DNA from: Acidimicrobiales bacterium | GTDB taxonomy: Bacteria > Actinomycetota > Acidimicrobiia > Acidimicrobiales > Aldehydirespiratoraceae | Length of the DNA stretch: 64,000 bases | Assembly: GCA_965207755.1 (NCBI GenBank) | Contig: OZ242297.1 | Coordinates: 2,789,816-2,853,815, forward strand | Direction: 5' to 3' | Shown: positions 1-47,922 of the stretch, piece by piece | How the letters are laid out: each line of letters opens with the position of its first letter | Numbering within the stretch: position 1 is the stretch's first letter | The notes under the pieces: model-generated | Told to the model about the DNA's origin: nothing | Database searches by the model: none | Seen by the model: only the letters and a program-made list of their open reading frames with translations | Program-made: the position numbers and the translations under genes

Positions 1-2104
1 CGAAGTCGATTCCGCAGATGACAGTTTCGGTTGGAAACGTAAAGGGAGGGTTCCTGCCTTCTGGCTTGCGCAGGCGGGAGATGTTGCTTGGCTCGATGAT
101 GAGAGCGGCACCCCACGCAAGCCAGCTGAGTTACGCGTTCGAACGCCGGGTACCGAGGCAATCTATGGCCCCAACTCCCGGGACTACCTGCATGCTGACC
201 TCGATCAGCCAATTCGTCGCGTGGTCTTGACGGCGCTTGGAGTCTCAAGTGATCCCAGTCGATCCGAACTCGTAGCACGGCTTCGGGAACTTCGCAGTGC
301 CTCAGACGAGGACGAGATCTCTTCTGAGGACCTGCGACGCGACGCTGCGCTCATCTACCGGGCGATCGCACGAGGCCTCAACGATGCGGACAGCGACGCT
401 GACCTGAACGCAAGTCAACTGAGAGCTGAATTCACGCGTCATCGTCTCGTACTAACGAATCTCGGCTGGTTGTCTCCCCAGAATGTGCTCGCGGGGCCAC
501 CGATCTTTGGACATTATCGCGCGTTCGCCCCCGCAATTTCGGATTGCGGGCCGCTGTGGCTCGCGCTGCGTCTGCGGCGACCCTCCGCGAGCGACTGCCT
601 GGAGGTCCTCGCGAAGATCGCATACCGTCGCCGAGACGCACCTGATCGTGCCGAGGAGGCGATTCTGCTTGAGACGCTGCGCACACTCGCCAAGCACCTC
701 GCGAAACAGAACACAATCGAGCGCCGGAAGCTGACAAGATTGGCTCTGTGGACGAGCGCAGGGTGGACGCGTGCCCGCCCTGTTTACGCGACCGACGACC
801 CGGTCCTCGCCGCCGGGCTCGGTGATCGCCTTCCCATTTGGCGACCGGGCGGCGGGATTGAACAGTTCCGTTCGCTGCTCGGACCGTTGCGCGTCACGAG
901 AATCCGAGCCGACGAAGCCCGAGTGATCGATCCTGAACTTGCGGAAGAAAAACAGGACTTAACGGAGCTTTTTCGCGAGTCGCTTGAACTGCTGCACGAC
1001 GACCTACAACGCCACGACCCAGCACTCGGCCAGGGCCTCACCGTGCCATGGGACAGGCTGGCGCTGTACGCCGTCAAAGTACTCCCGTCTCTTTCGCTCG
1101 AGATTAGCGCTGCAGGACGAGAATACGACTGCGAGGTGACCGCCAAGGTCGATACCACCTGTGCCACGGTCTTCGTCAGAGAAGCAGCGGCGCTCTCTCG
1201 CGTGGATGGGGGAGGCAGAGCGTTAGCAGCGCTCTTCGAGGGCGAAGCGCGGCTCGTCGCACAAGCATGGCGAGCCGCGTGCGATCAAGCCGAGGAAGGG
1301 ATCAAGGCGCGACGCGTTCCGCTCGCCAGCGAACTCGCTGCGCGGGAGAGGGCGGAACTTGATGCTCGACTTGCGGAGTGGGGAGAGAACGTCGCGAAGA
1401 AGCACCACTCGCCTCAAGGTCCCGCCGGAGAGAGGACAAAGAAGGCTCCTCAATCCGGCTCCGGAGCAGACAAGCACGAAAAGCGAGGGCAGTCTTCACC
1501 CGTGACCGCTCTCCGAGTACTCGTGGACCCTCAAGCACTCATGCTTGTCGACCCGAAGGGACGCACTGACCATAAATCCTCCGATATCGAGAACCGCACC
1601 GGTGAGAGCGCAACTTCCGACCGCGTTCTCAAGGAACCTAAGGGCAGCTCCCGCAGACCGCAGAATAGGTCTGCCTTGCGCGGCTACTCCGACCTGGACA
1701 AGGAAAACGTAGGATTCGAGCTTCTGCAGGTGCTGTTGGGCACGGACCAGGACGAACTCGTCGACCTGCGCACCCAGCGTGGGGTCGGTGCCGATGCCAT
1801 CGATCAGCTGAAGAAGTACTACGAACTAAAGGTCTTCGCTGGTGCCGAACCGGACCGAGTGACACTAACGGACTCCGAAGTACAGCGAGCACTCACCACG
1901 GCTGACTTCTTTCTCGTAGTCGTATCCAACGTTGAGGAGAGCGATGAAGCCCAGCCCACCATCCGCGTTGTGATCGATCCCCTGGAGCAGTTGCGTCCGA
2001 CCGACCGAGGTGCAATCACCCTCTCGGGACTGCGCGACGCTACGAGCCGCGTCTATAGGTTCGCTTCGACCGATGACGAGCAGCAGTTGATCGACGACGA
2101 GTAG
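1..2104 (+). CDS. C-terminal 700 aa of a large protein (5' end outside the window) ending in a DUF3883-like, restriction-endonuclease-fold domain
   Basis: The frame of the 221..2104 ORF stays open without a stop back to nt 2 and gives a protein-like translation (EVDSADDSFGWKRKGRVPAFWLAQAGDVAWLDDESG...). The GTG at 221 is therefore probably internal. The C-terminus (GFELLQVLLG...RGVGADAIDQLKKYYELKVFAG...LTDSEVQRAL..FFLVVVSNVE) fits the DUF3883 pattern of GxDI, then ExK, then a trailing hydrophobic strand. Confidence 0.6.
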   Translation, partial: EVDSADDSFGWKRKGRVPAFWLAQAGDVAWLDDESGTPRKPAELRVRTPGTEAIYGPNSRDYLHADLDQPIRRVVLTALGVSSDPSRSELVARLRELRSASDEDEISSEDLRRDAALIYRAIARGLNDADSDADLNASQLRAEFTRHRLVLTNLGWLSPQNVLAGPPIFGHYRAFAPAISDCGPLWLALRLRRPSASDCLEVLAKIAYRRRDAPDRAEEAILLETLRTLAKHLAKQNTIERRKLTRLALWTSAGWTRARPVYATDDPVLAAGLGDRLPIWRPGGGIEQFRSLLGPLRVTRIRADEARVIDPELAEEKQDLTELFRESLELLHDDLQRHDPALGQGLTVPWDRLALYAVKVLPSLSLEISAAGREYDCEVTAKVDTTCATVFVREAAALSRVDGGGRALAALFEGEARLVAQAWRAACDQAEEGIKARRVPLASELAARERAELDARLAEWGENVAKKHHSPQGPAGERTKKAPQSGSGADKHEKRGQSSPVTALRVLVDPQALMLVDPKGRTDHKSSDIENRTGESATSDRVLKEPKGSSRRPQNRSALRGYSDLDKENVGFELLQVLLGTDQDELVDLRTQRGVGADAIDQLKKYYELKVFAGAEPDRVTLTDSEVQRALTTADFFLVVVSNVEESDEAQPTIRVVIDPLEQLRPTDRGAITLSGLRDATSRVYRFASTDDEQQLIDDE

Positions 2105-2334
2105 ACCCCGCGCTGGGCTCAGCTTGCAAGCACAAGGGCACGGCTACCCGTCGTCGCAACTGTGTCGGCGAACACCGCGAGCACCTGATGTATGGACTCC
2201 GCCGTGCTCCTCTGAGCGGACGTTGGGTGTGCTAGGGCAGAGGACGACAGACCTGGTTGCACGATACCGATCTCTCCGTGCCTCAAGGCTGGCCTGCACT
2301 CCCAGCTAAGCCCTCGACGCTTCATCCCCGAACG

Positions 2335-3210
2335 TTATGAGCCGAGGTAGACCAACAGCCGCGCGAGACCATCGCTCCCGTCGACCACGGTCGCGGCGGG
2401 GGACTCTTGGCCGGTCAGGCGACGGCGGAGACTCGCCCAGAGTTGCGGGTCGTGGTAGCGAGACCGACTGCGGAGAGCTTGGCCGACGACAACCTGAAGG
2501 TCATTCACCCTCAGAGACGGAGCGCCACCAGCTGCTTTAGAGTGCCACAGCGACAGGTGCACTACTCCGCCTGGCGTGTGCTCGATGACAATGTGATCGG
2601 CGATCTCCCCAGAGCCATCGTTGCACAGGATCCAGCGGTGCTCAGCGCGACGAGGTTGCTGTCGCAGGTACTCCTCGACGCCCTCGTGAATTGAGACACC
2701 GAGCCCCTTGCGCGCGGCGGTCTCGCGGGTCTCCGACTCGATGTCTACGCCCCGAGCCTTCCAATTGATCGTCTCGATGTCTCGATGATCGAAGCGGCCC
2801 GCATTCCCTCCGTTCACATCGAAAATCTCGCGGCCCTGGACCGCTTCGCCCGAAGCAAAATAGACTATCGGTGGGTAGCGGTCCAGGAACTCCGTGAAAG
2901 CAAAATCTTCGCTGTATCCGTGCTTGACGCGGATTCCTGTCCCACGGTCCTCGGCTCCCCCGCCACAGATCAGCACTCCCGTCCAACACACGGTCTGAGT
3001 GCCGAGGCTTCGATCTGTCATCAGTGCGACAATGGGGAGTTCCCGAGCGGTGGTATTCGGCAGGGTCAACCCGCCTGTGGGATCGACGCCAGCGTGAAGT
3101 TCAAGGTCCTCCACAGAACCGATGAGCGTGTTCAACGGCGTCACCAACTGTAAGCCCCCAACAGCGACCGCTTGGTTCATCTCGACTGCGATCGGATCGA
3201 TAGCGGCCAT
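2335..3210 (-). CDS. helicase-coupled protein with a putative Mrr-like PD-(D/E)xK-type nuclease core
   Basis: The ORF lies directly downstream of the helicase. An alternative in-frame ATG at 3180-3178 overlaps the helicase stop (3179-3177) as ATGA. The C-terminal segment ILCNDGSGEIADHIVIEH..VHLSLWHSKAAGGAPSLRVNDLQVVVGQALRS resembles the Mrr-cat layout (DGGID ... QCK ... V..V..L.G) with HSK in place of QxK. This assignment is pattern recognition only. Confidence 0.55.
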   Translation of the reverse strand: MAAIDPIAVEMNQAVAVGGLQLVTPLNTLIGSVEDLELHAGVDPTGGLTLPNTTARELPIVALMTDRSLGTQTVCWTGVLICGGGAEDRGTGIRVKHGYSEDFAFTEFLDRYPPIVYFASGEAVQGREIFDVNGGNAGRFDHRDIETINWKARGVDIESETRETAARKGLGVSIHEGVEEYLRQQPRRAEHRWILCNDGSGEIADHIVIEHTPGGVVHLSLWHSKAAGGAPSLRVNDLQVVVGQALRSRSRYHDPQLWASLRRRLTGQESPAATVVDGSDGLARLLVYLGS

Positions 3211-5201
3211 TCGCTAATCGCTCTCCCCCGCGGGACTTGAGGCAGGAGCGGCGAGCCGTCGCCGCTTCGGGGGAACCAGAGCAGTTCCGCAGCCTCGGTC
3301 ACCCACGCGGCGTAATCGACCAGAGTCTTGTATCGACGCTGCCAAATCTTGCCCTTCTCCAAGGCGGCCCCAACGGTCGTCGAACCCTGACTCACGCGGA
3401 TCTGCATCATCACGTGCCCTAGGGCAGTTTGAGTTGTCTCGATTGAGCCGAGATCGATATAAGTGCTGCTGCCCGCTCTGGTCTTGTAGGCCGTGCCTCT
3501 CGTGCCTGCAAGGATGTTCCGCATTCCAATCGACGACACCGATATCCGCGGGAGACTCTGGAGATAGCCGTCGAGTCGCTCAGGATCGACAACGGAGGCG
3601 TTCTCCGGGACGTTGAGAATCTTGACGACTGCGTCCCCGATGCGTTTGTCCTCCGCGTCGACGAAGAGAAGCGATGGCAGACCGATTCGAGGAGCCGCTC
3701 GATACGAAATCACGGTCAGGCCGTACTCGATCGACTCGACCGATGAGTCAGTGCACCACCTTGGCGTTGAGCGACGGCGAGTTACCAGCACAATGAGTCT
3801 GCCGTGGTCGGCGACGAGTGCCGTGAGTATCTCAGCGCCGCCGAGAGAGCGCCCTACATCAAGCTCGGCCGGTAACGAGGTACCTTCGGCGACGGGCTTC
3901 CAGAGCGGTTCAGCTACCTCGAAGACCGTGGGCGTTGGCATCGGCTGAAGATGCATGGGATCGATGCGCCCCTGCCTGAGTTCAAGCGCATCAGCGAAGT
4001 CACGAGCCGCCTTGTCCGCCTCAATCTCAGCGTCGACGATCCCCGGCAGGATCGTTGCCCAGTCTGCATCCTCCTTATAGAGGTCGCGCACGACCGACTG
4101 AAGTTCCGGATACACATCTCCATCGTCAACGGTCACTAGGACGGACTCTTGGGGGTATTCCTCACTAACCCGGGCGAGACGACCGACCAGTTGAACGGTC
4201 GCAGGCAACGACTTGTGCTTGTCGTGGTATGCAACCAGGCGGAGACGTGGTAGGTCGTATCCCTCACCAAGCATCCCCACGACGCTGACCGCCTGCAGAG
4301 ATCCGTCCTTGAGCCTCCCTGTAATCGACTCGTAGTCGGAGGAAGATGTCTTCTGCGTCAGCGGCTCGATGTTGATACCTGCCTCTCGATGCAGATCAGC
4401 AAGCTCACCTGCCCGCTGGATGGAAGAGGCGCGGACCATCAGAGCACTTGATCGATGTTCAGGCCGCGCCGCGATCCGCACGACCTCATCGAGGATCATT
4501 CGGTCCTTCGTCTCGTGCGTAAGGGGCTCGGGCCGCGGAAGGACAAGTGGCCGTACGGGCCTGTAGAAGCTCTGATCGATTGCCTGCCGAAGCGGGAAGT
4601 GGAAGATGTTCGTTCCTGGCAGACGTTTATTGTCGAGCCTGAACGGGGTGGCTGTCAGAAGCAACGCAGAGCGAGAGTCGAGATGCTCAAGAATCGCGCT
4701 CCAAGTCCGCGAGGGAACGTGATGAGCCTCGTCCACGATCACAAGATCGAACATCCCGCTCGGAGGGACTGACACGTCGGCAGCGGAGGCTGGACTAACT
4801 GACTGCGGGATGGCAACAACGACATCCGCAGCAGCCGCTGCGTCCCAGTCGGTCGAGGTCCCGGTGACCTTATGAACTCGAAGCCTCGGACGACGACGCC
4901 TGTGGGGAAGGGCGCCAATGCTCCGCAGAAGATCCAAGTCCGCGAACTGAGGAACGGTCTGTTCTCGCAGCGCCCTCGACGGGACCAGCACTAGGACACG
5001 CTTCGGGGGCTCCGGTGTCACGAAGGGCGCTGCGAGGGCTACGCCAGTCTTGCCGGTGCCCGTTGGTAGGGAGATGAGAGCAGGTTCAGCGGGCGTCAAT
5101 GTCCAATGAGCTAGAAGCGCACCGAGTGCTCCACGCTGCGGAGCTCGCCAGCCATCAGCTGCGATCCGAAACGAAGTCCTTCCCGACTCGAACAGGCTCA
5201 T
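3177..5201 (-). CDS. SF2 DEAD/DEAH-box helicase (ResIII/XPB-like core) with an uncharacterised C-terminal region of about 270 aa
   Basis: Helicase motifs are present: I LPTGTGKTG, Ia VLVPSRALREQT, II VIVDEAHH, III LLLTATPF and VI QLVGRLAR. The ATG is at 5201. Confidence 0.85.
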   Translation of the reverse strand: MSLFESGRTSFRIAADGWRAPQRGALGALLAHWTLTPAEPALISLPTGTGKTGVALAAPFVTPEPPKRVLVLVPSRALREQTVPQFADLDLLRSIGALPHRRRRPRLRVHKVTGTSTDWDAAAAADVVVAIPQSVSPASAADVSVPPSGMFDLVIVDEAHHVPSRTWSAILEHLDSRSALLLTATPFRLDNKRLPGTNIFHFPLRQAIDQSFYRPVRPLVLPRPEPLTHETKDRMILDEVVRIAARPEHRSSALMVRASSIQRAGELADLHREAGINIEPLTQKTSSSDYESITGRLKDGSLQAVSVVGMLGEGYDLPRLRLVAYHDKHKSLPATVQLVGRLARVSEEYPQESVLVTVDDGDVYPELQSVVRDLYKEDADWATILPGIVDAEIEADKAARDFADALELRQGRIDPMHLQPMPTPTVFEVAEPLWKPVAEGTSLPAELDVGRSLGGAEILTALVADHGRLIVLVTRRRSTPRWCTDSSVESIEYGLTVISYRAAPRIGLPSLLFVDAEDKRIGDAVVKILNVPENASVVDPERLDGYLQSLPRISVSSIGMRNILAGTRGTAYKTRAGSSTYIDLGSIETTQTALGHVMMQIRVSQGSTTVGAALEKGKIWQRRYKTLVDYAAWVTEAAELLWFPRSGDGSPLLPQVPRGRAISEWPLSIRSQSR

Positions 5202-5299
5202 CTCTCAGGACACTCCAGACATCCGGCTTCGCCGATTCGCCTCGCACGCTGAGCACAATTCTTGGGAGACGCGGCACCCCCTGTCGTTCGCGTGCTTCA

Positions 5300-5608
5300 C
5301 TACAACGCCTCTGACAAGCGATGCAGCGTCTGCGGTAGGGGCGGTCCATGGAATTGGTGCCTGGCAACAACTGCGCGGGCCCTAGCCGCCAACAGATCAA
5401 GTTGTTCCGCGAATTGCGTCGTCCCAAGATTCCGGTAGTGGTCAGCATTGGCCCGCAGTGCCGCGTAGACATCGGTCCACGCCTTCGCCCCTCCTTTGCG
5501 GTAGCCCTGTTCAAGACGTTCGATGACCGATGCTGCTCGGTCGAAGACGGTGCGCCGCTCCCACTCCTCCGCCATTGGTGGTGAGTCTGGTTTGAACAAC
5601 TGGTCCAT
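5300..5608 (-). CDS. hypothetical small helical protein upstream of the helicase
   Basis: A 102-aa ORF lies on the same strand about 100 nt upstream of the helicase start. An alternative start is at MAEEWERR (about 5575). I recognise no motif. Confidence 0.3.
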   Translation of the reverse strand: MDQLFKPDSPPMAEEWERRTVFDRAASVIERLEQGYRKGGAKAWTDVYAALRANADHYRNLGTTQFAEQLDLLAARARAVVARHQFHGPPLPQTLHRLSEAL

Positions 5609-5986
5609 GGGCTATCTCCTGGCAGCAGCGGCGCGCCCGACTGAGATCTCCGGCCCGCCAATGAGGTGACAGGAGTGCAACTACACCAGTGTCAGATCCA
5701 CCTTAGTGACTCAGGCGTTTCGGTTGATTCCCTTCGCCAAAGCATCGACATCACGAGCCACCAGCCGGCCAATGCTGCTTCTCACGGCAAAAAGTTGGCC
5801 CGACGATCGTTCGCCCCGGATCGCTCGCAGCCTCGTCGCGATGGCCTTCTCAGAACCGTTCTGACATGTCGGATAACGAAGCTTCACAGATCGTCCGTTA
5901 GAATTCTCGTTAGAAGTTTGGCCGATTCTGGAGTTATCCACAGGTTAGCCTAGATCAGAAATGTGCTCTGACCTTGGCTTTTTTTG

Positions 5987-11847: not shown

Positions 11848-12119
11848 CCGACTCCACCGGCGCAGCACGCGCGGCAGGACGCCCGGCCTCGGGCCCCAGG
11901 ATCATCCCGGCAGGCCTGCGCCGGCTGGTGGCCGGCGCCTGGCTGGCGGCCCTGCTGGCAGCGACCGCCGCCGCCGGCACAGCATCGGCCTCGTCCGGCG
12001 CCGCCCCCTACGCGATCACTGAGATCGGCCCCGCGCCGGCGACCGGGTTCAAGATCAGCGACATCGGCGCCGTCCCGACCCCGACAGCCACTCCCCCGAC
12101 GCAGACGACGCACCGCTGA
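11844..12119 (+). CDS. small secreted protein (91 aa) translationally coupled to the kinase-like gene
   Basis: ATG 11844 overlaps the upstream stop 11845-11847 (ATGA). The signal-like N-terminus is RRLVAGAWLAALLAATAAAGTASA, and the tail is Pro/Thr-rich. Confidence 0.4.
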   Translation: MTDSTGAARAAGRPASGPRIIPAGLRRLVAGAWLAALLAATAAAGTASASSGAAPYAITEIGPAPATGFKISDIGAVPTPTATPPTQTTHR

Positions 12120-12120
12120 G

Positions 12121-12305
12121 CACAGACGACGCGGACGACGCAGACGACGCACCGGCGAACACAGACGAACGCGGACGACGCAGACGACGCACCGGCGAAC
12201 ACAGACGACCCAGACGACGCAGACGACGCACCGGCGAACACAGACGACGCGGACGACCCAGACGACGCACCGGCGAACACAGACGAACGCGGACGACGCA
12301 CCGGG
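12121..12305. repeat. tandem repeat, about 4.7 copies of 39-40 bp, between convergent genes
   Basis: Units beginning cacagacga start at 12121, 12160, 12200, 12239 and 12278. The last codons of the upstream CDS (gacgcagacgacgcaccg) already resemble the unit. Confidence 0.9.
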
Positions 12306-15369: not shown

Positions 15370-15380
15370 GGGTGAAGATG

Positions 15381-15467
15381 CTACCCGTCCAGCGCGAGGG
15401 CCGAGATGCCCGGCAGCCCCATGCGCGAGGGCCGAGATGCTACCCGTCCAGCGTGAGGGCCGAGATG
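15381..15467. repeat. duplication of the lepA 3' end in the lepA-hrcA spacer
   Basis: The sequence ctacccgtccagcg[c/t]gagggccgagatg occurs at 15381-15408 and again at 15440-15467, which is the true lepA end including the TAG stop. A partial copy gcgcgagggccgagatg lies at 15423-15439. Confidence 0.85.
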
Positions 15468-17736: not shown

Positions 17737-18753
17737 TCAGCGGGCCGACAGCTGCGCCAGCCGGGCGACCAGAACCTCCAGCACCAGTTCGTCGGGCCAG
17801 TCGACCGTTCCCCTGAGGGCGAGGTCGGCAGCGGCCAGCAGCCGGACGGCCCGGGCGATCCTCTCCGAGCCCAGCCTGCGGGTCTGGCCCAAGATCTTGC
17901 GGGCCGGGAACGTCGATCCCTTCATGCCGAGGATCTCCGCGGCCTGGCGCTCGTCGGCCGCGCCCGCGCCGTCGAGGCGCAGCATCCTCTGGTAGCGGCC
18001 GTGCAGCGCGGCCAGCAGCTGGAGAGGATGGCGCGACGGCAGCAGGCGGTGCAGCACCCTCAGCGCCCCGGCGATGTCGCCGCGGTCGACGGCGTCGTCG
18101 AGATCCCAGGGCAGCACGGAGCCCGGATCCCCGCCGTAGAGGGCCACGTCGCCGGCGGTTACGGCCGCTCCCGGGCCCAGCGCACCCTCCAAGGTCCGCA
18201 GCAGCCCGACGATGTTGCCGCGGTCGGCCCCCACGAGGTCGTCGACGGCGGCCGCCGCGGCCGGCTCGAAGCTCAGGCCCGACTGCTCCAACTGCTTCTT
18301 GAGCCACTTGTGGGCCTCGGACCGGCCCCTGGGCGGGGTCACGTCCAGCGAGACGCCCCCGGCCGCCTGCACGGCGTCCTTGAGCGCCTTGGGCACCGCC
18401 GGCAGGCGGCCGCCCATCACGGGGTCCACACCCCGCTCCCACACCAGCACCAGATCGGTGGTGGCGGGCAGCGTCCCGAGCAGGCGCACCAATCCGTCGC
18501 AGTCGCGGGAGCGGGCGAACCGGGTCAGATGGCGTCCCACCACCACCCGGCGGGAGGTCAGGAACGGCTGCGTCTGGGCCGCGTCCACCAGCGGGGCGAG
18601 ACGCCACCCGCCGTCGGGGTCCCGGAGGCCGGCCTCGTCGATCTGTTCCAGGGCCAGGCTGCGGTCCTGGTCGCCCAGCGTCTCCTTGACGATCCTCGCC
18701 ACCGCCTCGGCCACCAGCACGGGGTCGTCGCCGGTGACGAGTCGGACGCTCAT
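17737..18753 (-). CDS. holA: DNA polymerase III delta subunit (HolA)
   Basis: The protein begins MSVRLVTGDDPVLVAEAV and contains PFLTSRRVVV. ATG 18753 overlaps the comEC stop (ATGA). The position in the comEA-comEC-holA synteny supports the call. Confidence 0.8.
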   Translation of the reverse strand: MSVRLVTGDDPVLVAEAVARIVKETLGDQDRSLALEQIDEAGLRDPDGGWRLAPLVDAAQTQPFLTSRRVVVGRHLTRFARSRDCDGLVRLLGTLPATTDLVLVWERGVDPVMGGRLPAVPKALKDAVQAAGGVSLDVTPPRGRSEAHKWLKKQLEQSGLSFEPAAAAAVDDLVGADRGNIVGLLRTLEGALGPGAAVTAGDVALYGGDPGSVLPWDLDDAVDRGDIAGALRVLHRLLPSRHPLQLLAALHGRYQRMLRLDGAGAADERQAAEILGMKGSTFPARKILGQTRRLGSERIARAVRLLAAADLALRGTVDWPDELVLEVLVARLAQLSAR

Positions 18754-20534
18754 AGTGGCCGGATGATACGGCCACCCGGCCCGCCGCCGCGGGTGATCTC
18801 GACAACCAGTCCGGGAGCGTCGGACACGACCTCCACATGCACTGCGCCGACCCGGACAGTGTCGCCCGCCCGGACGGTGCGCGCTCCCGGCACCCGGTGC
18901 ATGGGCGGGGCCACCGCCGCCGCCGTCCGGTAGCGGTCCGTGAGCGCCAGCACCGCGTGGGCGTCGGACGCGCCGCCGCTGGAGGCCACCACCAGGTCGA
19001 CGCGCCGCACGCCCGCGAGCCGAAGCGACTGCAACAGATCCCGGGGCCGGGCCTGCTCGTCGAGGACGACCACCACCGCGGACTCGTGCCGGAACAGCCG
19101 AGCACCGCCGGCCTCCGACCAGCCCAGCGGGGGCGACGCCGCCGCCAGCACGCTGACCGCCATGACGACCGTCACCATCACCGCACCCCCGGCACCCAGC
19201 GGCCCGGCTCGCTCCAGCCTGCGGGACACCAACACCAGAGCCACCCCGGCTCCCACCAAGGCAGCGCTGCCCGCACCGAGCATCGCGGGGGGCGCGGCCG
19301 CGGCGGCCGCGGCGACGCTTCGCACCCACCACAGCAGCGCGGCGGTGGGCCGGTGAATCAGCCATGCGACCGGCTCGCCGGCCAGACCGGCGCCCAGCCC
19401 GCCGGTGAGGCCCCACATCATCACCGGCGCGGTCGCGGGTCCCGCGATCACGTTGGCAGGCAACGAAGCCACGGGAACGACGCCGAACACAGCCACCAGC
19501 AGTGGCATCACCGCCAGCTGGGCCCCGGCGGTAGTGGCCGCGGCCAGTCGCAGCGGGCGGGGGCCGGGCAGCATCTCGGCCAGCGGGGGCGTGATCCACA
19601 GCAGCCCGCAGGTGGCGCAGACCGAGAGCTGGAAGGCCAGGACGCGTATCAGGAAGGGGTCGGCCACCAGCACCGCGGCCACCGCCCAGGCCAGGGTCCG
19701 CCGTCCGGTCTCGGGCTGTCCGAGCGCCGCGCTGGTTACGGCCACCCCCGCCATGGTCACCGCCCGCAGCACCGACGGCTCGAAGCGGGTCAGCACCGCG
19801 AACACCGCCAGCAGCGCCAACAGCACGATCAGGCGGACACCGGGACGGGCCCGCACGGCCAGCGGCGACGCCAGCGCCAGCACGAAGGCCACGTTCTGGC
19901 CCGACACCACCAGCAGGTGCCCCAGCCCGGCGGCGCGGAAGTCGTCGTAGAGGCGGGGCGACTGGCTGCGGTCGTCGCCGTAGACCATCCCCGCGAACAT
20001 GGCCCGGCTGTCGTGGGGCAGGCCGGCGGCGCCCGACTCCAGCAGCCGCCGCACGCGGTTGGTGAACGCTCCCAGGGGCGCGGCGCCGGCCCGGTCTCCG
20101 ACGGCGTCGACGTTCAGGGTCGCGGCCACGTGCCGCCAGCGGTGCCAGTCGCCGGCGGCGGGCCGGGCGGCGCCCGAGACGTACACACGCTCGCCGGCCA
20201 GGGCGTCGTCCAGCCGGGCGGCCACCGCTCCGTACGCCCGGGCCTCGACGCGGGCGTCGCCGTGGCGGACCGTGACCCGGATCCCGTGGGCGCCCAGCGG
20301 CCTGGGATCGTCGAGCAGGGTGACCCACCCCTCCAGCGGACCGTCGGGCGGATCGGCGAGCCCGTCCAGCGCCTTGGAACCGAAGAAGCCGGCGAAGGCC
20401 GCGAAGGCGACCATCACGAGAAGCGGGCTCGGCCGCCACAGGCAGGCCCCGGCGAGCACCACCGCCACAGCCGGCGGGACGCCGACCAGCAGCCACGACC
20501 CCAGCGCGGCGCCAGCCGCGGCCGCGTAGGGCAT
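18750..20534 (-). CDS. comEC: competence protein ComEC/Rec2 (DNA internalisation channel)
   Basis: The protein is polytopic (MPYAAAAGAALGSWLLVGV...GLGHLLVVSGQNVAF...). The start is ATG 20534. The frame stays open upstream through the 75-bp array to GTG 20996. Confidence 0.85.
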   Translation of the reverse strand: MPYAAAAGAALGSWLLVGVPPAVAVVLAGACLWRPSPLLVMVAFAAFAGFFGSKALDGLADPPDGPLEGWVTLLDDPRPLGAHGIRVTVRHGDARVEARAYGAVAARLDDALAGERVYVSGAARPAAGDWHRWRHVAATLNVDAVGDRAGAAPLGAFTNRVRRLLESGAAGLPHDSRAMFAGMVYGDDRSQSPRLYDDFRAAGLGHLLVVSGQNVAFVLALASPLAVRARPGVRLIVLLALLAVFAVLTRFEPSVLRAVTMAGVAVTSAALGQPETGRRTLAWAVAAVLVADPFLIRVLAFQLSVCATCGLLWITPPLAEMLPGPRPLRLAAATTAGAQLAVMPLLVAVFGVVPVASLPANVIAGPATAPVMMWGLTGGLGAGLAGEPVAWLIHRPTAALLWWVRSVAAAAAAAPPAMLGAGSAALVGAGVALVLVSRRLERAGPLGAGGAVMVTVVMAVSVLAAASPPLGWSEAGGARLFRHESAVVVVLDEQARPRDLLQSLRLAGVRRVDLVVASSGGASDAHAVLALTDRYRTAAAVAPPMHRVPGARTVRAGDTVRVGAVHVEVVSDAPGLVVEITRGGGPGGRIIRPL

Positions 20535-20580
20535 CGCCGCCCCGCCCCAACTCCGGCGGAGCCGCTCGACGGTCGAGGAT

Positions 20581-21030
20581 CGCCCACCGCCGCCCGATCC
20601 CCGACCTCGCCCCGCCCTCACGGGCCGCCCACCGTGGCCAGAGGACGGATCTGATCGCCCACCGCCGCCCGATCCCCGACCTCGCCCCGCCCTCACGGGC
20701 CGCCCACCGTGGCCAGAGGACGGATCTGATCGCCCGCCGCCGCCCGATCCCCGACCTCGCCCCGCCCTCACGGGCCGCCCACCGTGGCCAGAGGGCGGAT
20801 CTGATCGCCCGCCGCCGCCCGATCCCCGACCTCGCCCCGCCCTCACGGGCCGCCCACCGTGGCCAGAGGGCGGATCTGATCGCCCACCGCCGCCCGATCC
20901 CCGACCTCGCCCCGCCCTCACGGGCCGCCCACCGTGGCCAAGGGGCGGATCTGATCGCCCACCGCCGCCCGATCCCCGACCTCGCCCCGCCCTCACGGGC
21001 CGCCCACCGTGGCCAGAGGGCGGATCTGGT
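20581..21030. repeat. tandem repeat, 6 copies of 75 bp, spanning the comEA stop and the comEA-comEC spacer
   Basis: Units start at 20581, 20656, 20731, 20806, 20881 and 20956. The copies are nearly identical, and each contains ctcacgggccgcccaccgtggccagagg.cggatctg, which is the last 12 codons plus the stop of comEA. Confidence 0.95.
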
Positions 21031-21739
21031 CGAGCTTGGCCGGGCCGATGCCGGAGACCTCGACCAGCTCGTCGACCGTGGTGAACGGGCCTGACTGCCG
21101 GCGGTGCTCGACTATGGCGGCCGCCAGCGCAGGGCCGATGCCCGGCAACTCTTGCAGCGCGGCAGCGTCTGCGGTGTTGACGTTCAGCGGTGCGCCCGCC
21201 CGTCCACTTCCCGCTCCGGCGCCTCCCGCTCCGGCGCCGCCGCCCGCTCCTGCGCTGGCCGAGACGACCTCGGGTCCCGCCGACTCCCCGACAGCCGGCA
21301 CCCACAGGCGCGCTCCGTCGCTCAGCGGCTCTGCCAGGTTGAGCCGCATCCGGTCGGCCTCGGCGGTCAGCCCGCCCGCGGCCTCGACTGCGTCGGCGAC
21401 GCGGCTGGTGGCGGGCAGTTCGTGCAGGCCGGGCCTGACCACCGCCCCGACGACGTCCACCGCTATGCGTGCCGGGTCCGCCACCGGCGACGGACCCGGC
21501 ACGGGGATCTCCACCGAGCCGGCCATCGGCAGGATCTCGGCCGGGTCCGGGCCGGCAGGCGGGCGCAGCGCCCACCAGCCCCCGAGCGCGGCGGCAGCCA
21601 CCGCGAGCGCGCCGAGGACCACCGTCACCGGGGACACGCCCAGCCGATCGGCCAGCGCTCCCGGGGATGGCACCGCGAGCCGGCGGCCGCGGCCGCCGGC
21701 GGGTGGCGTACCCATTGCCTGTCCCCACGTCGCCTGCAA
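20993..21739 (-). CDS. comEA: competence protein ComEA (SLBB domain plus helix-hairpin-helix DNA binding)
   Basis: Diagnostic segment: LNVNTADAAALQELPGIGPALAAAIVEHRRQSGPFTTVDELVEVSGIGPAKLDQI. The start is uncertain (21739 or 21715). Confidence 0.85.
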   Translation of the reverse strand: MQATWGQAMGTPPAGGRGRRLAVPSPGALADRLGVSPVTVVLGALAVAAAALGGWWALRPPAGPDPAEILPMAGSVEIPVPGPSPVADPARIAVDVVGAVVRPGLHELPATSRVADAVEAAGGLTAEADRMRLNLAEPLSDGARLWVPAVGESAGPEVVSASAGAGGGAGAGGAGAGSGRAGAPLNVNTADAAALQELPGIGPALAAAIVEHRRQSGPFTTVDELVEVSGIGPAKLDQIRPLATVGGP

Positions 21740-33070: not shown

Positions 33071-33384
33071 CTATGCCGACGCGGTCATGGCGGCATCGTA
33101 GTCGGGCTCGTCGGCGATCTCCTCCACGGACTGCGAGTGCAGCACCGTGCCGTCGCGCCGATCACGACCACCGCTCGGGCGCACAGCCCCGCGGCCGCGG
33201 AGCGTTCCAGGCGGCTCGACTGGGCCGTCACCGCCGAGAGACAGGCGCCGCTGCCGGACCGCGGCGGCCTCGAATCGCTCCAGGAGTCCCTGCCCGACAC
33301 GCGAGTCGCCCGGCAGGCGCCGGCGAGCGCGCCCGGTGCGCCGCTCGGGCAGTGTTTGACCGGGTGCCGGGGGGATGCCATCAT
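33071..33384 (-). pseudogene. decayed thiol-peroxidase (tpx-like) paralogue: 5'-truncated, internally deleted and frameshifted
   Basis: Position 33094-33121 is almost identical to 40759-40786 of tpx, and 33161-33187 matches 40826-40852. Translation gives GLCARAVVVI and then, after a 1-nt deletion relative to tpx, VLHSQSVEEIADEPDYDAA. The catalytic TPTC region is not conserved. Confidence 0.6.
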
Positions 33385-36300
33385 CGTGGTCGGTGGGTGT
33401 GGGTCGATGGAGGTTCGAGCGCCTGAGGGCGGTACCGGAGGGCTCGGGGCGCGGTCGGGAGTTCGGGGCGGCTTCGCTGGAGCTGGTGTTGTTGGTGCCG
33501 GCGTTGACGGCTCTGGTGTTGTTCGTGGTGTGGGCGGGCGCCGGGGGGCGTGCGGGTCTGGTGGCTGATCTCGCCGCGGAGGAGGCGGCTGCGGCGGCGG
33601 GGATGGCGTGTGATCCTGCGGACGCGGCCGGGGATGCGCAGTGTCTGGATTCGGTGGCTCGGGAGGTTCTGGGGGCGCGCCCGGGTCTCGGGGAATTGTG
33701 CGTGGGAGGCGCAGCGCCGTCGCGGCCCGGGACGGGTCTCGCCTCCCGGCAGGGCGATGCGGTGTCGGTGGGGGTGCTGTGCCGCGCGGCAGGGGCGGCT
33801 GCGCCGTTGGGGGGTCTCGCCCCGGCGGTGGACTTCTACGGCGAGGGCACCCACGTCGTTGTGCTGCCCGACCGCTCCGTGACCGTCGCCGCCGTCTCCT
33901 CCGGCGTCACCGAGGGCTCAGACGCCGAGTTCGCGGTGACGGTGGCGCCTCCGCCCGCGGGGGCACTCGAGTTGGTGGTGACGTTGAGCGAGGACGGCGG
34001 TTTCGTGGACGGCGGCTACCTGGGCGGCCACCCGCTGGCAGTGCCCCCCTTCCCGGTCACCGAGGCGCCCAAGATCGACTTCGGTGACGGCACCCGGCTG
34101 GACGCCGACGGCGCCGTGGTCGGCGCCGACGACGCCGCCGACAGCGTGGTGTACAGGTTCGCGGTGCCGACCGTCGACGACGGCGCGGTGGAGCCAGACG
34201 GTTGGGTCCAGGCCGCCGTGGCGGTCGCGGCCGGCGACGGCTACCGGCCCGGCGCGCCGGCGCGTGTCGCCGTGCTCGACGACGACGTGCCCACCGTGAC
34301 CGTCGCCGCCGCCGACCACGACCCCGCCACACCCGGCGCGCAGACCGCCGTCACCGAGGGCGACGTCGGCGACCCGGCCGTCTACGCGGTGTTCACCGTC
34401 ACCGCGGACCAGTCGCCCGCCGAGGACACCACCATCCGGCTGTCGGTCACTGAGACCGGCGACCAGATCGCCGCCGCCGCCGAAGGCCCCAAGACAGTCA
34501 CCATCGCCAAGGGCGCCACTGCAGCCACCTACCGCGTCCCCGTCGCCGCCGACGACCGAGTCGAGGCCTCCAGCACCGTGACCGCCGCCATCACCGCGGA
34601 CGCCGCATACGCCGTGGGCGCGCCGTCGTCGGCGCCGGTGACCGTGCTCGACGACGACGTGCCCACCGTGACCGTCGCCGCCGCCGACCACGACCCCGCC
34701 ACACCCGGCGTGCAGACCGCCGTCACCGAGGGCGACGCCACCGAGTTCACCGTGTCGGTCCCCTCCCAGCACGCGCCCCTCACCGACCTCACCGTCAACC
34801 TCACCGTCACCCAGACCGGCCAGTACGTCCCCGCCGCAGGACTCGGCGCCCGCAGCGTCACCATCGACAAGGGCGCCACCACGGCCCGATTCGCCGTCGC
34901 CACCGTCGACGACAGCACCCCGGAGCCCCCGGGCGCGGTCACCGCCACTGTCACCGCCGCCCCAGATTATGCCGTGGGCGTGCCGTCATCGGCGTCGGTG
35001 GACGTGCTCGACGACGACGTGCCCGAAGTCACCGTCACCGCCGGAGCGGACGTCACCGAAGCCGACCCCGGCGACGCGGCGGTGTTCGCGGTGTTCACCG
35101 TCACCGCGGACCACGCCCCGGTCATAGACACCGCGGTGAGCCTGTCGGTCACGGAGACCGGCGACCAGATCGCCGCGGCCGCCGAGGGCGAGCACACGGC
35201 CACCATCGCCAAAGGCGCCACCACCGCCGTGCTGCGCGTCGCCGTCGCCGCCGACGACAGAGTCGAGGCCTCCAGCACCGTGACCTCCGTTATCGAGCCC
35301 GCCTCGGGGTATTCGGTGGGCGTTCCCGCCAGCGCCTCGCTGCAGGTGCTCGACGACGACCTGCCAGAAGTGACCGTCGCCGCCGGCCCCGACGTCTATG
35401 AGGGCTCCCCGGCGAAGTTCACCGTCGCCGCGGACCAGCCGCCCATCGCGGACACCGCAGTCACCCTGACAATCGCTGAGACCGGCAGCGAACTGCGCTC
35501 AGGCCAGACCGGCGCCCACACCGTCACCATACGGAAGGGCACCACCACCGCAACCCATCCGGTGCTGACCCGCGCCGACGACAACCGAGTCGAAGCAGGC
35601 AGCCGGATCACCGCCACCGTCGCAGCCGTCACCGTCGCCTCCGGCTATGGCGTCGGCGTTCCCGGGTCGGCAGAGCTGTCGGTCAAAGACAACGACAGGC
35701 CCGCAGTGTCGGTATCGCCCGGCCCGGCCATCACCGAAGGCCAGACCGCGGAGTTCACCGTGTCGGTGCCCATCCAGCACGCGCCCCTCGCCGACCTCAC
35801 CGTGCAGGTTGACGTCACCCAGACCGGCCGATACGCCGCGTCTGGCCAGACCGGCGCCCGCAGCGCCACCATCGCCAAGGGCGCCACGACAGCCAAACTC
35901 GCCGTCGCCACCATCGACGACACCACCCCGGAACCCGCAGGCGCGATCACCGCTGCAATCACCAGCGTCACCGCCGACGCCGACTACACCGTCACCGCGC
36001 CCTCCACCGCAACCGTCGCCGTCAACGACAACGAACCCACCGTCACCATCACCGCCGACACCCCAGCCGTCACCGAAGGCGACAGCGCCGCGTTCACCGT
36101 CCGCGCCGACCCCGCACCCAGCGCCGACCTCACCGTGCGAGTCAACATCACCCAGACCGGCCAATACGCCGCCGCCTCCGCCCTCGGCGCCCGCAGCGTC
36201 ACCATCACCAAGAACACCACCACCGCCAAACTCGCCGTCGCCACCGTCGACGACACCACCGTCGAACCCGCCGGAACCGTCACCGCCACCATCAGGACCG

Positions 36301-37529
36301 CAGCCGCCACCCCCCACACCGTCAAGAATCCATCCACCGCCACAATCACCGTCAACGACAACGAACCCGCTGTCACCATCACCGCCGACACCCCAGCCGT
36401 CACCGAAGGCGACAGCGCCGCGTTCACCGTCCGCGCCGACCCCGCACCCAGCGCCGACCTCACCGTGCGAGTCAACATCACCCAGACCGGCCAATACGCC
36501 GCCGCCTCCGCCCTCGGCGCCCGCAGCATCACCATCACCAAGAACACCACCACCGCCAAACTCGCCGTCGCCACCGTCGACGACACCACCGTCGAACCCG
36601 CCGGAACCGTCACCGCCACCATCAGGACCGCAGCCGCCACCCCCCACACCGTCAAGAATCCATCCACCGCCACAATCACCGTCAACGACAACGACCAGGT
36701 CGTCACCGTCACCGCCGACGCCACGGCGGTCACCGAAGGAGCCGACGCCGCCTTCACTGTCCGCGCCGACCCCGCACCCGGCAGCGACCTCACCGTCAAC
36801 ATCACCGTCACCCAGACCGGCGAATACGTCGCCGCCGCCAACCTCGGAACCCGCAACATCACCATCGCCAAAGGTGCCGCCACCGCCAGACTAGCCGTCC
36901 CGACCGTCGACGACCGGCGGGACGAACACCCCGGAACCGTCACCGTCACCGTCAACACCGCAGCCGGCTACACCCGAGGCACCCCCGACACCGCCACAAC
37001 CACAGTCAACGACAACGACCCACCGCTGTCCGGTATCATACCGGGCTACAGAGGATGCAACAGCGGCTATCTCCTGTACGAAGGCACCAGCACCAACTTC
37101 TGCGTGTTCAGCATGCCGCGGTACGGGCTGACCGCCGACGTCGACTACACGATCTACTTCGCCCAACTTGACTGGAGCACTCTTCCAATCGGGTGGACGG
37201 TGGACAGCGAGCGTCTCATTCTGCGGAATCTCAACGAGGCCGTGGCGGGCACGAGCTGCGGGTCGGGCGTCGACATCGTCATGTTGGACTGGGTGGACGG
37301 CACCTTCGGCAAGGATGCGGAATTCGATGCCGCCGTCGAGGGAGCCGGCGCCCTGCGGGGAACGGTCAAGGAGGGCAAGAGCATCCATCTGGCATGGGAC
37401 ATCAGAGTATGCAACGACTATGTGAAAGAAGGATGGGAACTGACCGCAATAAGGATCACATTCGAATCCGGAGGTCAAACCCGGACCTACAAAATCCCCA
37501 CGCTGTTGTTGGTGAGAGACAACGACTGA
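33375..37529 (+). CDS. giant surface protein: TadE-like pseudopilin N-terminus, 9 Calx-beta-like repeats and a novel Cys-containing C-terminal domain
   Basis: The N-terminus REFG|AASLELVLLVPALTALVLFVVWA fits a prepilin-type G|xxxxE site and the TadE family. Nine repeats of about 110 aa follow (VTEGD.A.FTV...LTV.V.VTQTG.Y....GARSVTI.KG.TTA.LAV.TVDD...EP.G.VTA). The last 170 aa or so are unrelated and have lower G+C. Confidence 0.8.
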   Translation: MPSSWSVGVGRWRFERLRAVPEGSGRGREFGAASLELVLLVPALTALVLFVVWAGAGGRAGLVADLAAEEAAAAAGMACDPADAAGDAQCLDSVAREVLGARPGLGELCVGGAAPSRPGTGLASRQGDAVSVGVLCRAAGAAAPLGGLAPAVDFYGEGTHVVVLPDRSVTVAAVSSGVTEGSDAEFAVTVAPPPAGALELVVTLSEDGGFVDGGYLGGHPLAVPPFPVTEAPKIDFGDGTRLDADGAVVGADDAADSVVYRFAVPTVDDGAVEPDGWVQAAVAVAAGDGYRPGAPARVAVLDDDVPTVTVAAADHDPATPGAQTAVTEGDVGDPAVYAVFTVTADQSPAEDTTIRLSVTETGDQIAAAAEGPKTVTIAKGATAATYRVPVAADDRVEASSTVTAAITADAAYAVGAPSSAPVTVLDDDVPTVTVAAADHDPATPGVQTAVTEGDATEFTVSVPSQHAPLTDLTVNLTVTQTGQYVPAAGLGARSVTIDKGATTARFAVATVDDSTPEPPGAVTATVTAAPDYAVGVPSSASVDVLDDDVPEVTVTAGADVTEADPGDAAVFAVFTVTADHAPVIDTAVSLSVTETGDQIAAAAEGEHTATIAKGATTAVLRVAVAADDRVEASSTVTSVIEPASGYSVGVPASASLQVLDDDLPEVTVAAGPDVYEGSPAKFTVAADQPPIADTAVTLTIAETGSELRSGQTGAHTVTIRKGTTTATHPVLTRADDNRVEAGSRITATVAAVTVASGYGVGVPGSAELSVKDNDRPAVSVSPGPAITEGQTAEFTVSVPIQHAPLADLTVQVDVTQTGRYAASGQTGARSATIAKGATTAKLAVATIDDTTPEPAGAITAAITSVTADADYTVTAPSTATVAVNDNEPTVTITADTPAVTEGDSAAFTVRADPAPSADLTVRVNITQTGQYAAASALGARSVTITKNTTTAKLAVATVDDTTVEPAGTVTATIRTAAATPHTVKNPSTATITVNDNEPAVTITADTPAVTEGDSAAFTVRADPAPSADLTVRVNITQTGQYAAASALGARSITITKNTTTAKLAVATVDDTTVEPAGTVTATIRTAAATPHTVKNPSTATITVNDNDQVVTVTADATAVTEGADAAFTVRADPAPGSDLTVNITVTQTGEYVAAANLGTRNITIAKGAATARLAVPTVDDRRDEHPGTVTVTVNTAAGYTRGTPDTATTTVNDNDPPLSGIIPGYRGCNSGYLLYEGTSTNFCVFSMPRYGLTADVDYTIYFAQLDWSTLPIGWTVDSERLILRNLNEAVAGTSCGSGVDIVMLDWVDGTFGKDAEFDAAVEGAGALRGTVKEGKSIHLAWDIRVCNDYVKEGWELTAIRITFESGGQTRTYKIPTLLLVRDND
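36021..36680 (+). repeat. near-identical 330-bp tandem duplication inside the giant gene (two Calx-beta-like units)
   Basis: The anchor gtcaacgaca recurs at 36021, 36351 and 36681. By eye, units 36021-36350 and 36351-36680 differ at only a few positions. Confidence 0.9.
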
Positions 37530-41236: not shown

Positions 41237-41302
41237 TTGCGTCTCCTTTGGAAGCTGGGGGAAGGCTCGCACCCGACGGGTCGCCACATCAGTGCGTGAC
41301 GG

Positions 41303-42784: not shown

Positions 42785-42896
42785 GCAGATATGCCGACTG
42801 AGGCGGCTCTGTTGCGCACAGAACGCTGGGATCGAGTTCTGTGAGCAGATATGCCGACTGAGGCGGCTCTGTTGCGCACAGAACGCTGGGGGGGCT
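42777..42896. repeat. tandem repeat, 2 copies of 60 bp, starting in the last codons of the decarboxylase gene
   Basis: The sequence ttctgtgagcagatatgccgactgaggcggctctgttgcgcacagaacgctggg occurs at 42777 and 42837. Each copy contains the stem GTTCTGTG...CACAGAAC. Confidence 0.9.
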
Positions 42897-43660: not shown

Positions 43661-43896
43661 CGATCCTTCCCGTTCCGCCGATTCCGTCGAGAGCCGAGCC
43701 GGTAGACCCGAACCGCTCGTCGGTGCAGCGAGTCCGTTGAGCGACGCCGTGACCCGAGCGGCCCTCAGGTCGCCGCGAACAAGAGCAGAAATCGTAACAC
43801 TCCGCCGCGAGACGCCCCGGATCCGCCCGCGCTCGGCCGCGGCCACGACGCAACCGATGGCGGCTCGGCGGCAAACGGCTGATAGAAGAAGCCGCC

Positions 43897-44685: not shown

Positions 44686-44960
44686 CGGTCCGCGGGACCA
44701 GCCGACACCGCCAACCGGGCCGCAGGACGCCAACCCGGCCACGACACGCACCGTCACCCCGCGGGACCAGCCGGCACCGCCAACCGGGCCGCAGGACGCC
44801 AACCCGGCCACGAGACGCACCGTCACCCCGCGGGACCAGCCGGCACCGCCAACCGGGCCACACACCGCCATCCCGGCCACGACGACACGCACCGTCACCC
44901 CGCGGGGCCGGCCGGCACCGCCAGACGGGCCGCAGGACGCCGGTACGCTGACCCCGTCCG
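44686..44960. repeat. tandem repeat, about 4 copies of 69-72 bp, in the aldolase-ACAD spacer
   Basis: The anchor cgcgggaccagcc (or ggggccggcc) recurs at 44691, 44760, 44829 and 44901. Confidence 0.9.
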
Positions 44961-46224: not shown

Positions 46225-46431
46225 GTGCAGGCCATGACGGCGACAGCCCCTGACGGGCGTCGCGGCGCGGTGAGGGGCAGCCCTCGCGCTTCCGGCGCCC
46301 GCAACGGAGTTCGCCGCGGCGCGCCGGTTCGCGCCGGCGACCGCGTCCGCACGGACGGAGTGGCCGCTACTCGCAACGGCGCTCGCCGCGGCTCGCCTGT
46401 TCGCGCCCGTCCCGGGGGCGTGGGAGCGTGA
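46225..46431 (+). repeat. intercistronic segment with 2 copies of a 72-bp repeat and a bridging small ORF
   Basis: The anchor gcaacgg recurs at 46301 and 46373. The ORF runs from GTG 46225 or ATG 46234 to TGA 46429-46431, which overlaps the GTG 46428 start of the next gene. Confidence 0.7.
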
Positions 46432-47790: not shown

Positions 47791-47847
47791 CCCAAGACGG
47801 CCCCCACTCCCCCTGTTCACGGCGCCCTCGACCGCCACCCGATTCAC

Positions 47848-47896: not shown

Positions 47897-47922
47897 CGGA
47901 GTGACGGGGAGGCGGCGACCGC

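Follow-up and report, generated by a model that had tools for sequence, protein, structure and literature searches.

How can two translationally coupled genes stay connected when several hundred nucleotides (nt) of repeated DNA grow between them? This question is raised by the comEA-comEC junction in a 64-kb stretch of contig OZ242297.1 (GenBank assembly GCA_965207755.1, an uncultured Acidimicrobiales bacterium), which was analysed over its whole length and is called the window below; here, six near-identical 75-bp units in tandem cover the end of comEA and most of the distance to the conserved start of comEC. Taken together, the sequence and its comparison with related loci suggest that the array is a locally derived minisatellite, which is tolerated, and that it is most probably (with a rough probability of 0.55-0.6) translated as an N-terminal extension of ComEC, which would preserve the coupling to comEA. 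The system is of a known kind, with a locally derived, junction-cloning minisatellite at a coupled boundary as its variant.

Both genes are recognised by their diagnostic domains. The upstream product contains the Pfam domains SLBB (1e-11) and HHH_3 (1.6e-21), as ComEA does, and the downstream product contains the Competence domain of ComEC (Pfam, 1.5e-40) and is 99% identical to a deposited ComEC of 594 residues (P0001). The minus strand is the coding strand, and comEA, comEC and holA are co-oriented on it. The first possible start of comEA is TTG 21739, and ATG 21715 agrees with the 240-residue gene call in L080, a locus of the same species, where comEC occupies positions 3001-4785 and holA positions 4782-5798. 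Exact-protein look-ups of the window ComEA (248 and 240 residues), ComEC and HolA returned zero records. The comEA stop is embedded in GTGA, and, as the preliminary description of this DNA had stated, the GTG that overlaps this stop lies 462 nt, i.e., 154 codons, 5' of ATG 20534, in the same frame and with no stop codon in between (Table 1).

Table 1. Position of the array, its neighbours and other repeats in the window, with the GTGA-bearing duplications at the comEA-comEC junctions of relatives
Feature	Position	Strand	Details
comEA coding sequence	20993..21739	-	stop TGA 20995-20993; start uncertain
comEA stop/start overlap	20993..20996	-	GTGA: TGA 20995-20993, GTG 20996-20994
75-bp x 6.07 tandem array	20578..21032	-	Tandem Repeats Finder, consensus-unit search, unit table
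Array units 1 to 6	21032-20958 (true comEA end), 20957-20883, 20882-20808, 20807-20733, 20732-20658, 20657-20583	-	
Partial copy CGATC	20582-20578	-	array end beyond the sixth unit
Five cloned GTGA	20921-20918, 20846-20843, 20771-20768, 20696-20693, 20621-20618	-	within 20618..20921
Unique linker, array to comEC ATG	20535..20577	-	43 nt; comEC frame = STVERLRRSWGGAA
comEC, conventional coding sequence	ATG 20534 to 18750	-	594 residues; begins at the conserved M1 of MPYAAAAG
comEC, extended frame	18750..20996	-	from the coupled GTG; 748 residues = 154-residue extension + 594-residue protein
holA (DNA polymerase III delta)	17737..18753	-	Pfam; ATG overlaps the comEC stop as ATGA
39/40-bp x 5.2 array	12097-12300	+	encodes Asp/Ala/Thr-rich repeats
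lepA 3'-end duplication	15376-15467	-	TAG stop included (ISALTLDG and stop); in the lepA-hrcA spacer
330-bp x 3.6 coding repeat	35789-36966	+	in a 1389-codon reading frame (33360-37529)
60-bp x 1.9 perfect duplication	42776-42890	+	at the pyridoxal-dependent (PLP) decarboxylase gene (41300-42784)
69-bp x 3.6 intergenic array	44690-44941	+	5 nt past the stop of the HpcH/HpaI-type aldolase gene (43798-44685)
72-bp x 2.5 array	47610-47789	+	97% match; at the CoA-transferase family III gene (46254-47618)
42-bp x 3 array	50232-50358, reading frame 50167-50505	-	in-frame 14-residue repeat (LTRIEATLEEHGRR)
27/54-bp repeats	58755-59401	+	consensus translates to GGDGDDTLN; resembles RTX-type nonapeptide calcium-binding repeats
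Junction of L008			GTGA spacing 34 nt; about 5 copies
Junction of L034			GTGA spacing 39 nt; 2.8 copies
Junction of L017			GTGA spacing 47 nt; 2.2 copies
Junction of L012			GTGA spacing 37/72 nt; about 7 copies
Junction of L002			GTGA spacing 44 nt; one step
Junction of L006			GTGA spacing 32 and 14 nt; two steps
Junctions of L082-84			GTGA spacing 45 nt; 2 copies
Junctions of L085-86			GTGA spacing 45 nt; 2 copies

Tandem Repeats Finder detected a single array at the junction (period 75, 6.1 copies, 97% matches, indels 0, score 861). A search of the window with the consensus unit at <=3 mismatches, with 100 shuffles as control, returned exactly six full copies, on the minus strand only (20583-20657 to 20958-21032) and each with <=2 mismatches; no further copy was found in the 64 kb, and 0/100 shuffles matched. 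The six units given by the preliminary description, whose factual statements all proved correct, agree with both searches and differ only in register. Being built of head-to-tail, near-identical units in the range of 10-100 bp, the array has the structure of a generic bacterial minisatellite, or variable-number tandem repeat (VNTR). Its first unit on the coding strand is the genuine 3' end of comEA (...KLDQIRPLATVGGP and stop; ...DQIRPLATVGGP, then the TGA); units 2-6 repeat GDQIRPLATVGGP and a stop in the comEA frame, plus 36 nt 3' of the stop, so the pseudo C-termini proposed for the other five units are indeed present.

The GTGA of the comEA end is thus present in five further copies, which share at least 17 nt of upstream context with the real one, and the cloned GTGs all lie in frame with comEC, at -387, -312, -237, -162 and -87 relative to the ATG. 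The linker that follows is conserved in the closest subclade of the window. Read in the comEC frame, the 154-residue extension would consist of six 25-residue units (VRAGRGRGSGGGGRSDPPSGHGGRP) and a 14-codon linker, would be rich in Gly and Arg, and would yield the predicted tryptic peptides SDPPSGHGGRPVR, SDPPLGHGGRPVR, SDPSSGHGGRPVR and SSTVER from the array. The 154-residue tail matched no Pfam family; no deposited protein covers the extension, the best match being 99% identical over only 79% of the 748-residue query; and an exact search of metagenome contigs with the unit core gave 0 matches. A phase-variable contingency locus acting as a frameshift switch was rejected as an explanation of the array, the unit being 75 nt, or 25 codons, and all cloned GTGs being in the comEC frame.

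An array of this kind may be produced by assembly, through spurious expansion or a mis-join of a single-copy junction, as the preliminary description had itself noted; repeats that exceed the read length are easily misassembled, and the figure of six copies is that of the assembly. Two independent assemblies of the same species, L080 (GCA_028819505.1) and L081, both about 99% identical to the window at the nucleotide level, make such an origin very improbable. They contain a minimum of 3-4 units and are interrupted within the array: in L080, a scaffold gap of 100 N splits an array of the same units, and the L081 contig starts within the array. Breaks in this place are the expected behaviour of a real array that exceeds read length in short-read assemblies, and it is because of the array that assemblies of short-read metagenome-assembled genomes (MAGs) break at the comEA-comEC junction. 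The units also bear ordered variants instead of being identical, and several relatives with long contigs or chromosome-level assemblies have analogous arrays at this junction. The array is therefore real.

The variants of the unit sit in neighbouring pairs: two units have T at position 13, two have C at position 72 and one is a CT variant. In the resolved part of L080, unit 1 differs from that of the window at several positions, and the remaining visible units are all of the T13 variant. Both the pairing and the differing composition of L080 are consistent with ongoing slippage or unequal exchange, which would place identical variant units next to each other. VNTR behaviour of the array is, on this comparison, likely; the look-ups with exact proteins, which added further loci to the 79 related loci retrieved, did not yield another resolved array from this species. 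The array could serve as a marker for typing strains of these uncultured Acidimicrobiia.

As to the origin of the unit, a close published counterpart is the mycobacterial interspersed repetitive unit (MIRU). According to the summaries in PMC3914561 and PMC12548453 (Supply et al. 1997, 2000), MIRU-VNTRs are intercistronic tandem units of 46-101 bp located in operons, and PMC12548453, citing Supply et al. 1997, describes an internal open reading frame (ORF) of the MIRU that is coupled by a -4 overlap and has minimal impact on the downstream gene; the same summaries describe a dispersed family, present at 41 loci of M. tuberculosis H37Rv and presumed mobile, with insertion at start codons. Several features are alike: the 75-bp unit falls within the MIRU size range, it occurs in 6.1 tandem copies between co-oriented genes, comEA and comEC, followed by the ATGA overlap of comEC and holA, the host is a high-GC actinobacterium, the copy number is likely variable, and an ORF overlaps the comEA stop. 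A mobile, dispersed element of the MIRU type that inserted at the comEC start would explain these features (PMC12548453, PMC3914561). This explanation is nevertheless excluded for practical purposes, and is the least credible of those considered here. The unit opens with 39 nt that are simply the final 12 codons and stop of comEA, and these are conserved in relatives that have no array; the other arrays of the window have units unrelated to the 75-bp unit, of which no other copy at <=3 mismatches exists in the window; and the arrays of relatives differ in boundaries and periods, which implies local duplications.

The differences from MIRUs are thus those of origin and, in part, of the coupling. 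MIRUs are dispersed, whereas the unit of the window was cloned from the local junction, comprising the comEA 3' end, the GTGA and the spacer; the hosts also differ, Mycobacterium in one case and an uncultured member of Acidimicrobiia in the other. Upstream, the arrangement matches that of a MIRU, since the TGA of comEA is overlapped by GTG 20996; downstream, the ORF of the repeat continues in frame into comEC, with no stop on the comEC start. MIRU-like intercistronic repeats can by this route arise without a mobile element.

The array boundaries CGACC (21032-21028) and CGATC (20582-20578) form an imperfect 5-bp direct repeat. The linker before M1 was also considered as a decayed older copy of the comEA end, an idea that came from the peptides VERLRR/VEQIR versus LDQIR/LEQIR, and this was set aside as unsupported: the nucleotide alignment in the window is close to that of shuffles (z = 0.6), and the alignments of most relatives are non-significant. 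The alignment is significant in L006, where a partial duplicate is plainly present, and in L085 and L007 only via an identical 10-nt CGGCCGGTGA, which reflects the duplicated or nearby junction.

The junction was then compared across relatives, as the preliminary description had recommended, and this comparison revealed a recurrent hotspot of duplication that it had not mentioned. The best relatives are MAGs of Acidimicrobiaceae and "Candidatus Aldehydirespirator" (class Acidimicrobiia). The comEA stop of distant Acidimicrobiales typically lies within GTGA or ATGA, and comEC starts at the overlapping NTG; the N-terminus of these distant ComEC proteins, V-T-P-H-A..., aligns with M-P-Y-A-A... 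of the window. These loci point to a classical -4 overlap (NTGA) as the ancestral comEA/comEC state in Acidimicrobiales. In the clade of the window (ComEC 60-88% identical), additional sequence lies between the NTGA and the conserved M1. Across the related loci, 60 of 76 have a stop-overlapping start that leads, either directly or through a relay, into the frame of comEC. The pair thus has the architecture of translationally coupled genes, a GTGA overlap of stop and start with the GTG in frame with comEC, and this architecture is conserved in relatives.

Many lineages of the same clade have tandem duplications of their own of the comEA 3' end together with the GTGA, and these differ in boundaries and periods, with GTGA spacings of 32-75 nt overall and one 14-nt step in L006 (Table 1). 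Gene-called ComEC N-termini with 13- and 12-residue repeats are found in P0022 and P0071. The array of the window, with its 75 x 6 structure, is the largest example of a recurrent and independent process at this junction. The argument that the preliminary description drew from a unit divisible by three is weak, as the spacings (32, 14, 34, 44 and 47 nt besides 39 and 45 nt) show that relatives do not conserve this property.

Further lineage-specific in-frame minisatellites are present within the ComEC of relatives, namely in P0040 (= L011), P0081, P0060, P0085, P0108, P0100 and P0106; the internal loop of P0040 contains PLGGGVGVSSGVG x 5, and P0100 and P0106 have C-terminal repeats. The clade generally seems prone to tandem duplication, as far as these sequences indicate.

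Whether the spacer is translated was approached by simulating a ribosome path that terminates at the comEA stop, restarts at the stop-overlapping start and repeats this at each later stop. The simulated path reaches the comEC frame, open to M1, in 19 of the 22 close loci. Direct in-frame paths measure 39, 42, 57, 72, 75, 81, 93, 120, 159 and 462 nt; in five loci, mini-ORFs that each end in GTGA form a relay, with two hops in L002 and L017, three in L006 and L008 and four in L012. A naive binomial comparison with 1/3 gives p = 4e-7 for 19/22, with kinship ignored, and this statistic, which overstates selection, was dropped, as GTGA-containing duplications keep the path automatically in most cases. 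A duplication that includes the GTGA leaves the distal GTG in frame, so that path preservation at array loci is largely automatic: a period with a remainder of 0 on division by three gives a continuous frame, a remainder of 2 makes the GTG-ORF end on the next TGA, and only a remainder of 1 can break the path.

A better test is offered by old spacers in which no repeat is detectable, as the effect concerns array loci. In 11 of 13 such lineages the distance from the NTG to M1 is a multiple of three (binomial p = 2e-4, kinship ignored). Equal lengths are also kept by spacers of only 52-57% identity: L005, L010 and L013 have 77 nt each, L007 and L009 38 nt each. Non-coding DNA under no constraint would not be expected to keep its length in this way. 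In the closest subclade, the differences before M1 fall on codon positions 1/2/3 as 39/26/51, which is weakly coding-like, and a peptide TVE[RQ][LIV]R..WGG is conserved before M1. The annotation deposited at NCBI for L097 starts ComEC at the GTG of the GTGA overlap (comEA end 1294, comEC 1291-3141, 616 residues).

The two proposals of the preliminary description, an extended ComEC started at the GTG and an array acting as a bridge for translational coupling, have therefore gained comparative support from the ancestral NTGA overlap, the 19/22 unbroken paths and the frame-keeping spacers. Part of their original grounds was weak. The comEC frame has no stop as far as 21809 and spans comEA entirely, and over the array four out of six frames lack a stop; with a GC content of 70.5% in the window and a frame open through comEA, the openness of the comEC frame carries little weight by itself. 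The production of the longer protein is inferred from sequence.

Several observations weigh against translation of the spacer. The neutral expectation for path preservation at array loci is roughly 2/3 to 5/6, not 1/3. The second subclade has no third-position bias before M1 (56/64/37); the codon-position test, which gives a weak coding-like signal in subclade 1 and none in subclade 2, was therefore set aside as a decider, and the spacer peptide itself appears at most weakly constrained. M1 is an ATG in 17 of the 22 close loci, which fits independent initiation. By manual count, the GC content at third codon positions (GC3) of the array is ~64% in the comEC frame versus ~84% in the comEA frame, the coding GC3 of the genome being ~0.9; a low value is expected because the array is young, yet it provides no positive coding signal. 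About half of the clade reads GTGATG at M1, where an ORF in the comEA frame that ends in TGATG offers a second route of coupling, and this route would equally favour multiples of three; the window itself reads GCGATG and is without it. A 154-residue Arg-rich tail would also be hard to fit if the N-terminus of ComEC faces outward, and, for this uncultured organism, GTG reinitiation and the extended protein are inferred.

The same observations carry the alternative in which the repeats form a neutral VNTR that lies between the two genes and is not translated, with comEC started only at ATG 20534 through its own G-rich ribosome-binding region and the open frame a by-product of high GC. A conserved G-rich stretch lies directly upstream of the ATG, the ATG is kept in most of the close loci, and the protein of the same species, P0001, was deposited as 594 residues from the ATG; the uninformative openness of the frame, the low GC3 and the lack of coding-like substitutions in subclade 2 agree with it as well. 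This alternative is nonetheless judged rather unlikely. The ancestral start of comEC, the GTG at the comEA stop, is preserved in the window together with its native context, and the frame from this GTG is stop-free, so ribosomes using this GTG necessarily enter comEC; the repeat-free spacers keep to multiples of three and to equal lengths at ~55% identity; and the 594-residue call in L080 lies behind the 100-N gap, which makes an extension impossible in that annotation.

Deposited starts also disagree among near-identical ComEC genes of one relative species, with 594, 597, 606, 613 and 616 residues; the comEC coordinates are 1291-3141 in L097 and 1720-3504 in L088-L095, and the longest call, of 616 residues, begins at the GTG of the comEA stop/start overlap. 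The choice of the comEC start differs among the deposited annotations of near relatives and so affects gene calling.

Another explanation assigns the array a regulatory role, as a copy-number rheostat or a structured-RNA or G-quadruplex (G4) element that would tune comEC relative to comEA through per-unit reinitiation, loss of processivity or an RNA or DNA G4. A canonical G4 motif (GGGCGGGGCGAGGTCGGGGATCGGG) occurs once per unit on the coding strand, and these account for 6 of only 14 such motifs on both strands of the window; the junctions of the clade are strongly G-rich on the coding strand (45-55% G), and the multi-hop relays of relatives would plausibly attenuate downstream translation. 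The predicted folding energy of the RNA does not, however, differ from that of shuffles (z = -1.12 for 20520-21060 on the minus strand), and Rfam gave no match at E <= 1, which leaves a structured regulatory RNA unsupported. Canonical G4 motifs are absent from nearly all junctions of relatives, including those that bear arrays, and G4 was rejected as a general cause of the instability and is regarded as a peculiarity of the window. There is, in addition, no evidence that copy number correlates with anything, and a regulatory role of this kind is considered improbable. The G4 motifs sit just 3' of the GTGA, within 20617-20992 of the minus strand.

The preferred reading, a tolerated and probably translated minisatellite, can be set out as follows. 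A 75-bp segment that spans the coupled junction of comEA stop and comEC start (GTGA) would have been duplicated in tandem and recently expanded; the first duplication may have been mediated by the imperfect 5-bp microhomology on either side of the unit (CGACC...CGATC), and later growth may have proceeded by slippage or unequal exchange, the order of the events being deduced from the units. The array would be tolerated because comEA and its stop are intact in the first copy and the conserved ComEC is intact after the last. Ribosomes that end comEA would reinitiate at GTG 20996, the ancestral comEC start with its native upstream context, and read six 25-codon units and the 14-codon linker directly into comEC. 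The five cloned GTGs may start shorter forms, and ATG 20534 is probably also an independent start. ComEC would, on this prediction, gain an N-terminal tail of low complexity that is rich in Gly and Arg and measures 29 to 154 residues, and comEC would stay translationally coupled to comEA across 458 nt. In this reading, constraint acts on the unbroken ribosome path and not on the peptide, and the tail itself is considered functionless. The array is read as tolerated mutational growth in a duplication-rich genome and clade, not as a dedicated device; it would owe its existence to the fact that a tandem duplication across the junction, unlike most others, harms neither gene.

Besides MIRUs, three known systems can be set beside this reading. 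Termination-reinitiation at -4/-1 overlaps is established (PMC6728339, PMC12548453), and the overlaps of comEA/comEC (GTGA) and comEC/holA (ATGA) are classical -4 overlaps, the relays of relatives being chains of such overlaps. Published work on coupling requires overlaps or very short distances (PMC6728339, PMC10666635, PMC12548453), whereas here the conserved body of ComEC lies 458 nt from the upstream stop, a distance bridged by a putatively translated repeat or, in relatives, by up to four overlap hops. Bacterial coding minisatellites exist, e.g., the MPTR repeats in PPE genes (PMC3914561); if translated, the array of the window would similarly be an in-frame 25-residue repeat in a presumably disordered tail, with the difference that its DNA also encodes, in another frame, the C-terminus and stop of the upstream ComEA, so that two genes share the array. 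Short upstream ORFs, finally, deliver ribosomes to a downstream gene, and the cases described are single short ORFs (PMC12548453); ORFs without a recognisable product likewise link a stop to the next start in L002, L006, L008, L012 and L017 and at the junction of the CoA-transferase and MaoC-like genes of the window (see below), but in these cases they originate from repeated cloning of a junction and may be linked into chains.

A broader proposal, which is tentative, is that the coupled junctions of this clade are self-cloning modules: duplications of the GTGA would grow intercistronic regions to hundreds of bases, and selection would keep the ribosome path unbroken, either as an in-frame tail or as a chain of mini-ORFs. 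If this is true, the array of the window is the largest known case, the N-terminal tail of ComEC is hypervariable, with a length that tracks copy number, and termination-reinitiation is relayed over more than 450 nt. The clade in any case provides a natural experiment, in which coupled genes are 458 nt apart here and 40 to 330 nt apart in relatives with the ribosome path nearly always kept, and thereby an uncommonly clear natural series from which the reach of translational coupling, and the means of extending it, may be judged. It also suggests a simple route by which bacterial genes can gain low-complexity N-terminal tails.

Three further arrays that clone a stop codon are present in the window and had been missed by the preliminary description. 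The 72-bp array begins 6 nt before the TGA of the CoA-transferase gene and clones its last two codons and stop, the stop being within GTGATG. From GTG 47615 or ATG 47618, an ORF of 102-103 codons runs through this array, and its TGA overlaps ATG 47923 (ATGA; region 47610-47926) of a MaoC/hotdog-like gene at 47923-48984. This is the second ORF-bridged junction in the window and is supportive, although not conclusive, as shuffles with fixed ends and length achieve such a bridging ORF in 20% of cases. The perfect 60-bp duplication likewise starts 6 nt before the TGA of its gene, here the decarboxylase, and clones the last two codons and stop (context CTGTGA); it lies between convergent genes, and its unit holds an 8-bp inverted repeat (GTTCTGTG...CACAGAAC). 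The third, the duplication of the lepA 3' end, lies in a lepA-hrcA spacer of ~70 nt, versus 11 nt in relatives (L088-L095); the lepA stop has no overlapping start codon, so that no relay is formed.

The remaining repeats of the window are of other types. The 69-bp array past the aldolase gene ends 57 nt before ATG 44999 (MDFEFSDDQ...); the aldolase stop lies outside this array, which forms no stop/start relay. The 39/40-bp units bear frame-shifting 1-nt indels, and a 91-residue ORF with a hydrophobic N-terminal stretch, starting at ATG 11844, stops at a TGA in the first of these units. The protein that contains the 42-bp array has 113 residues and a hydrophobic N-terminus, and its gene adjoins an unusually AT-rich stretch at ~50500-50560.

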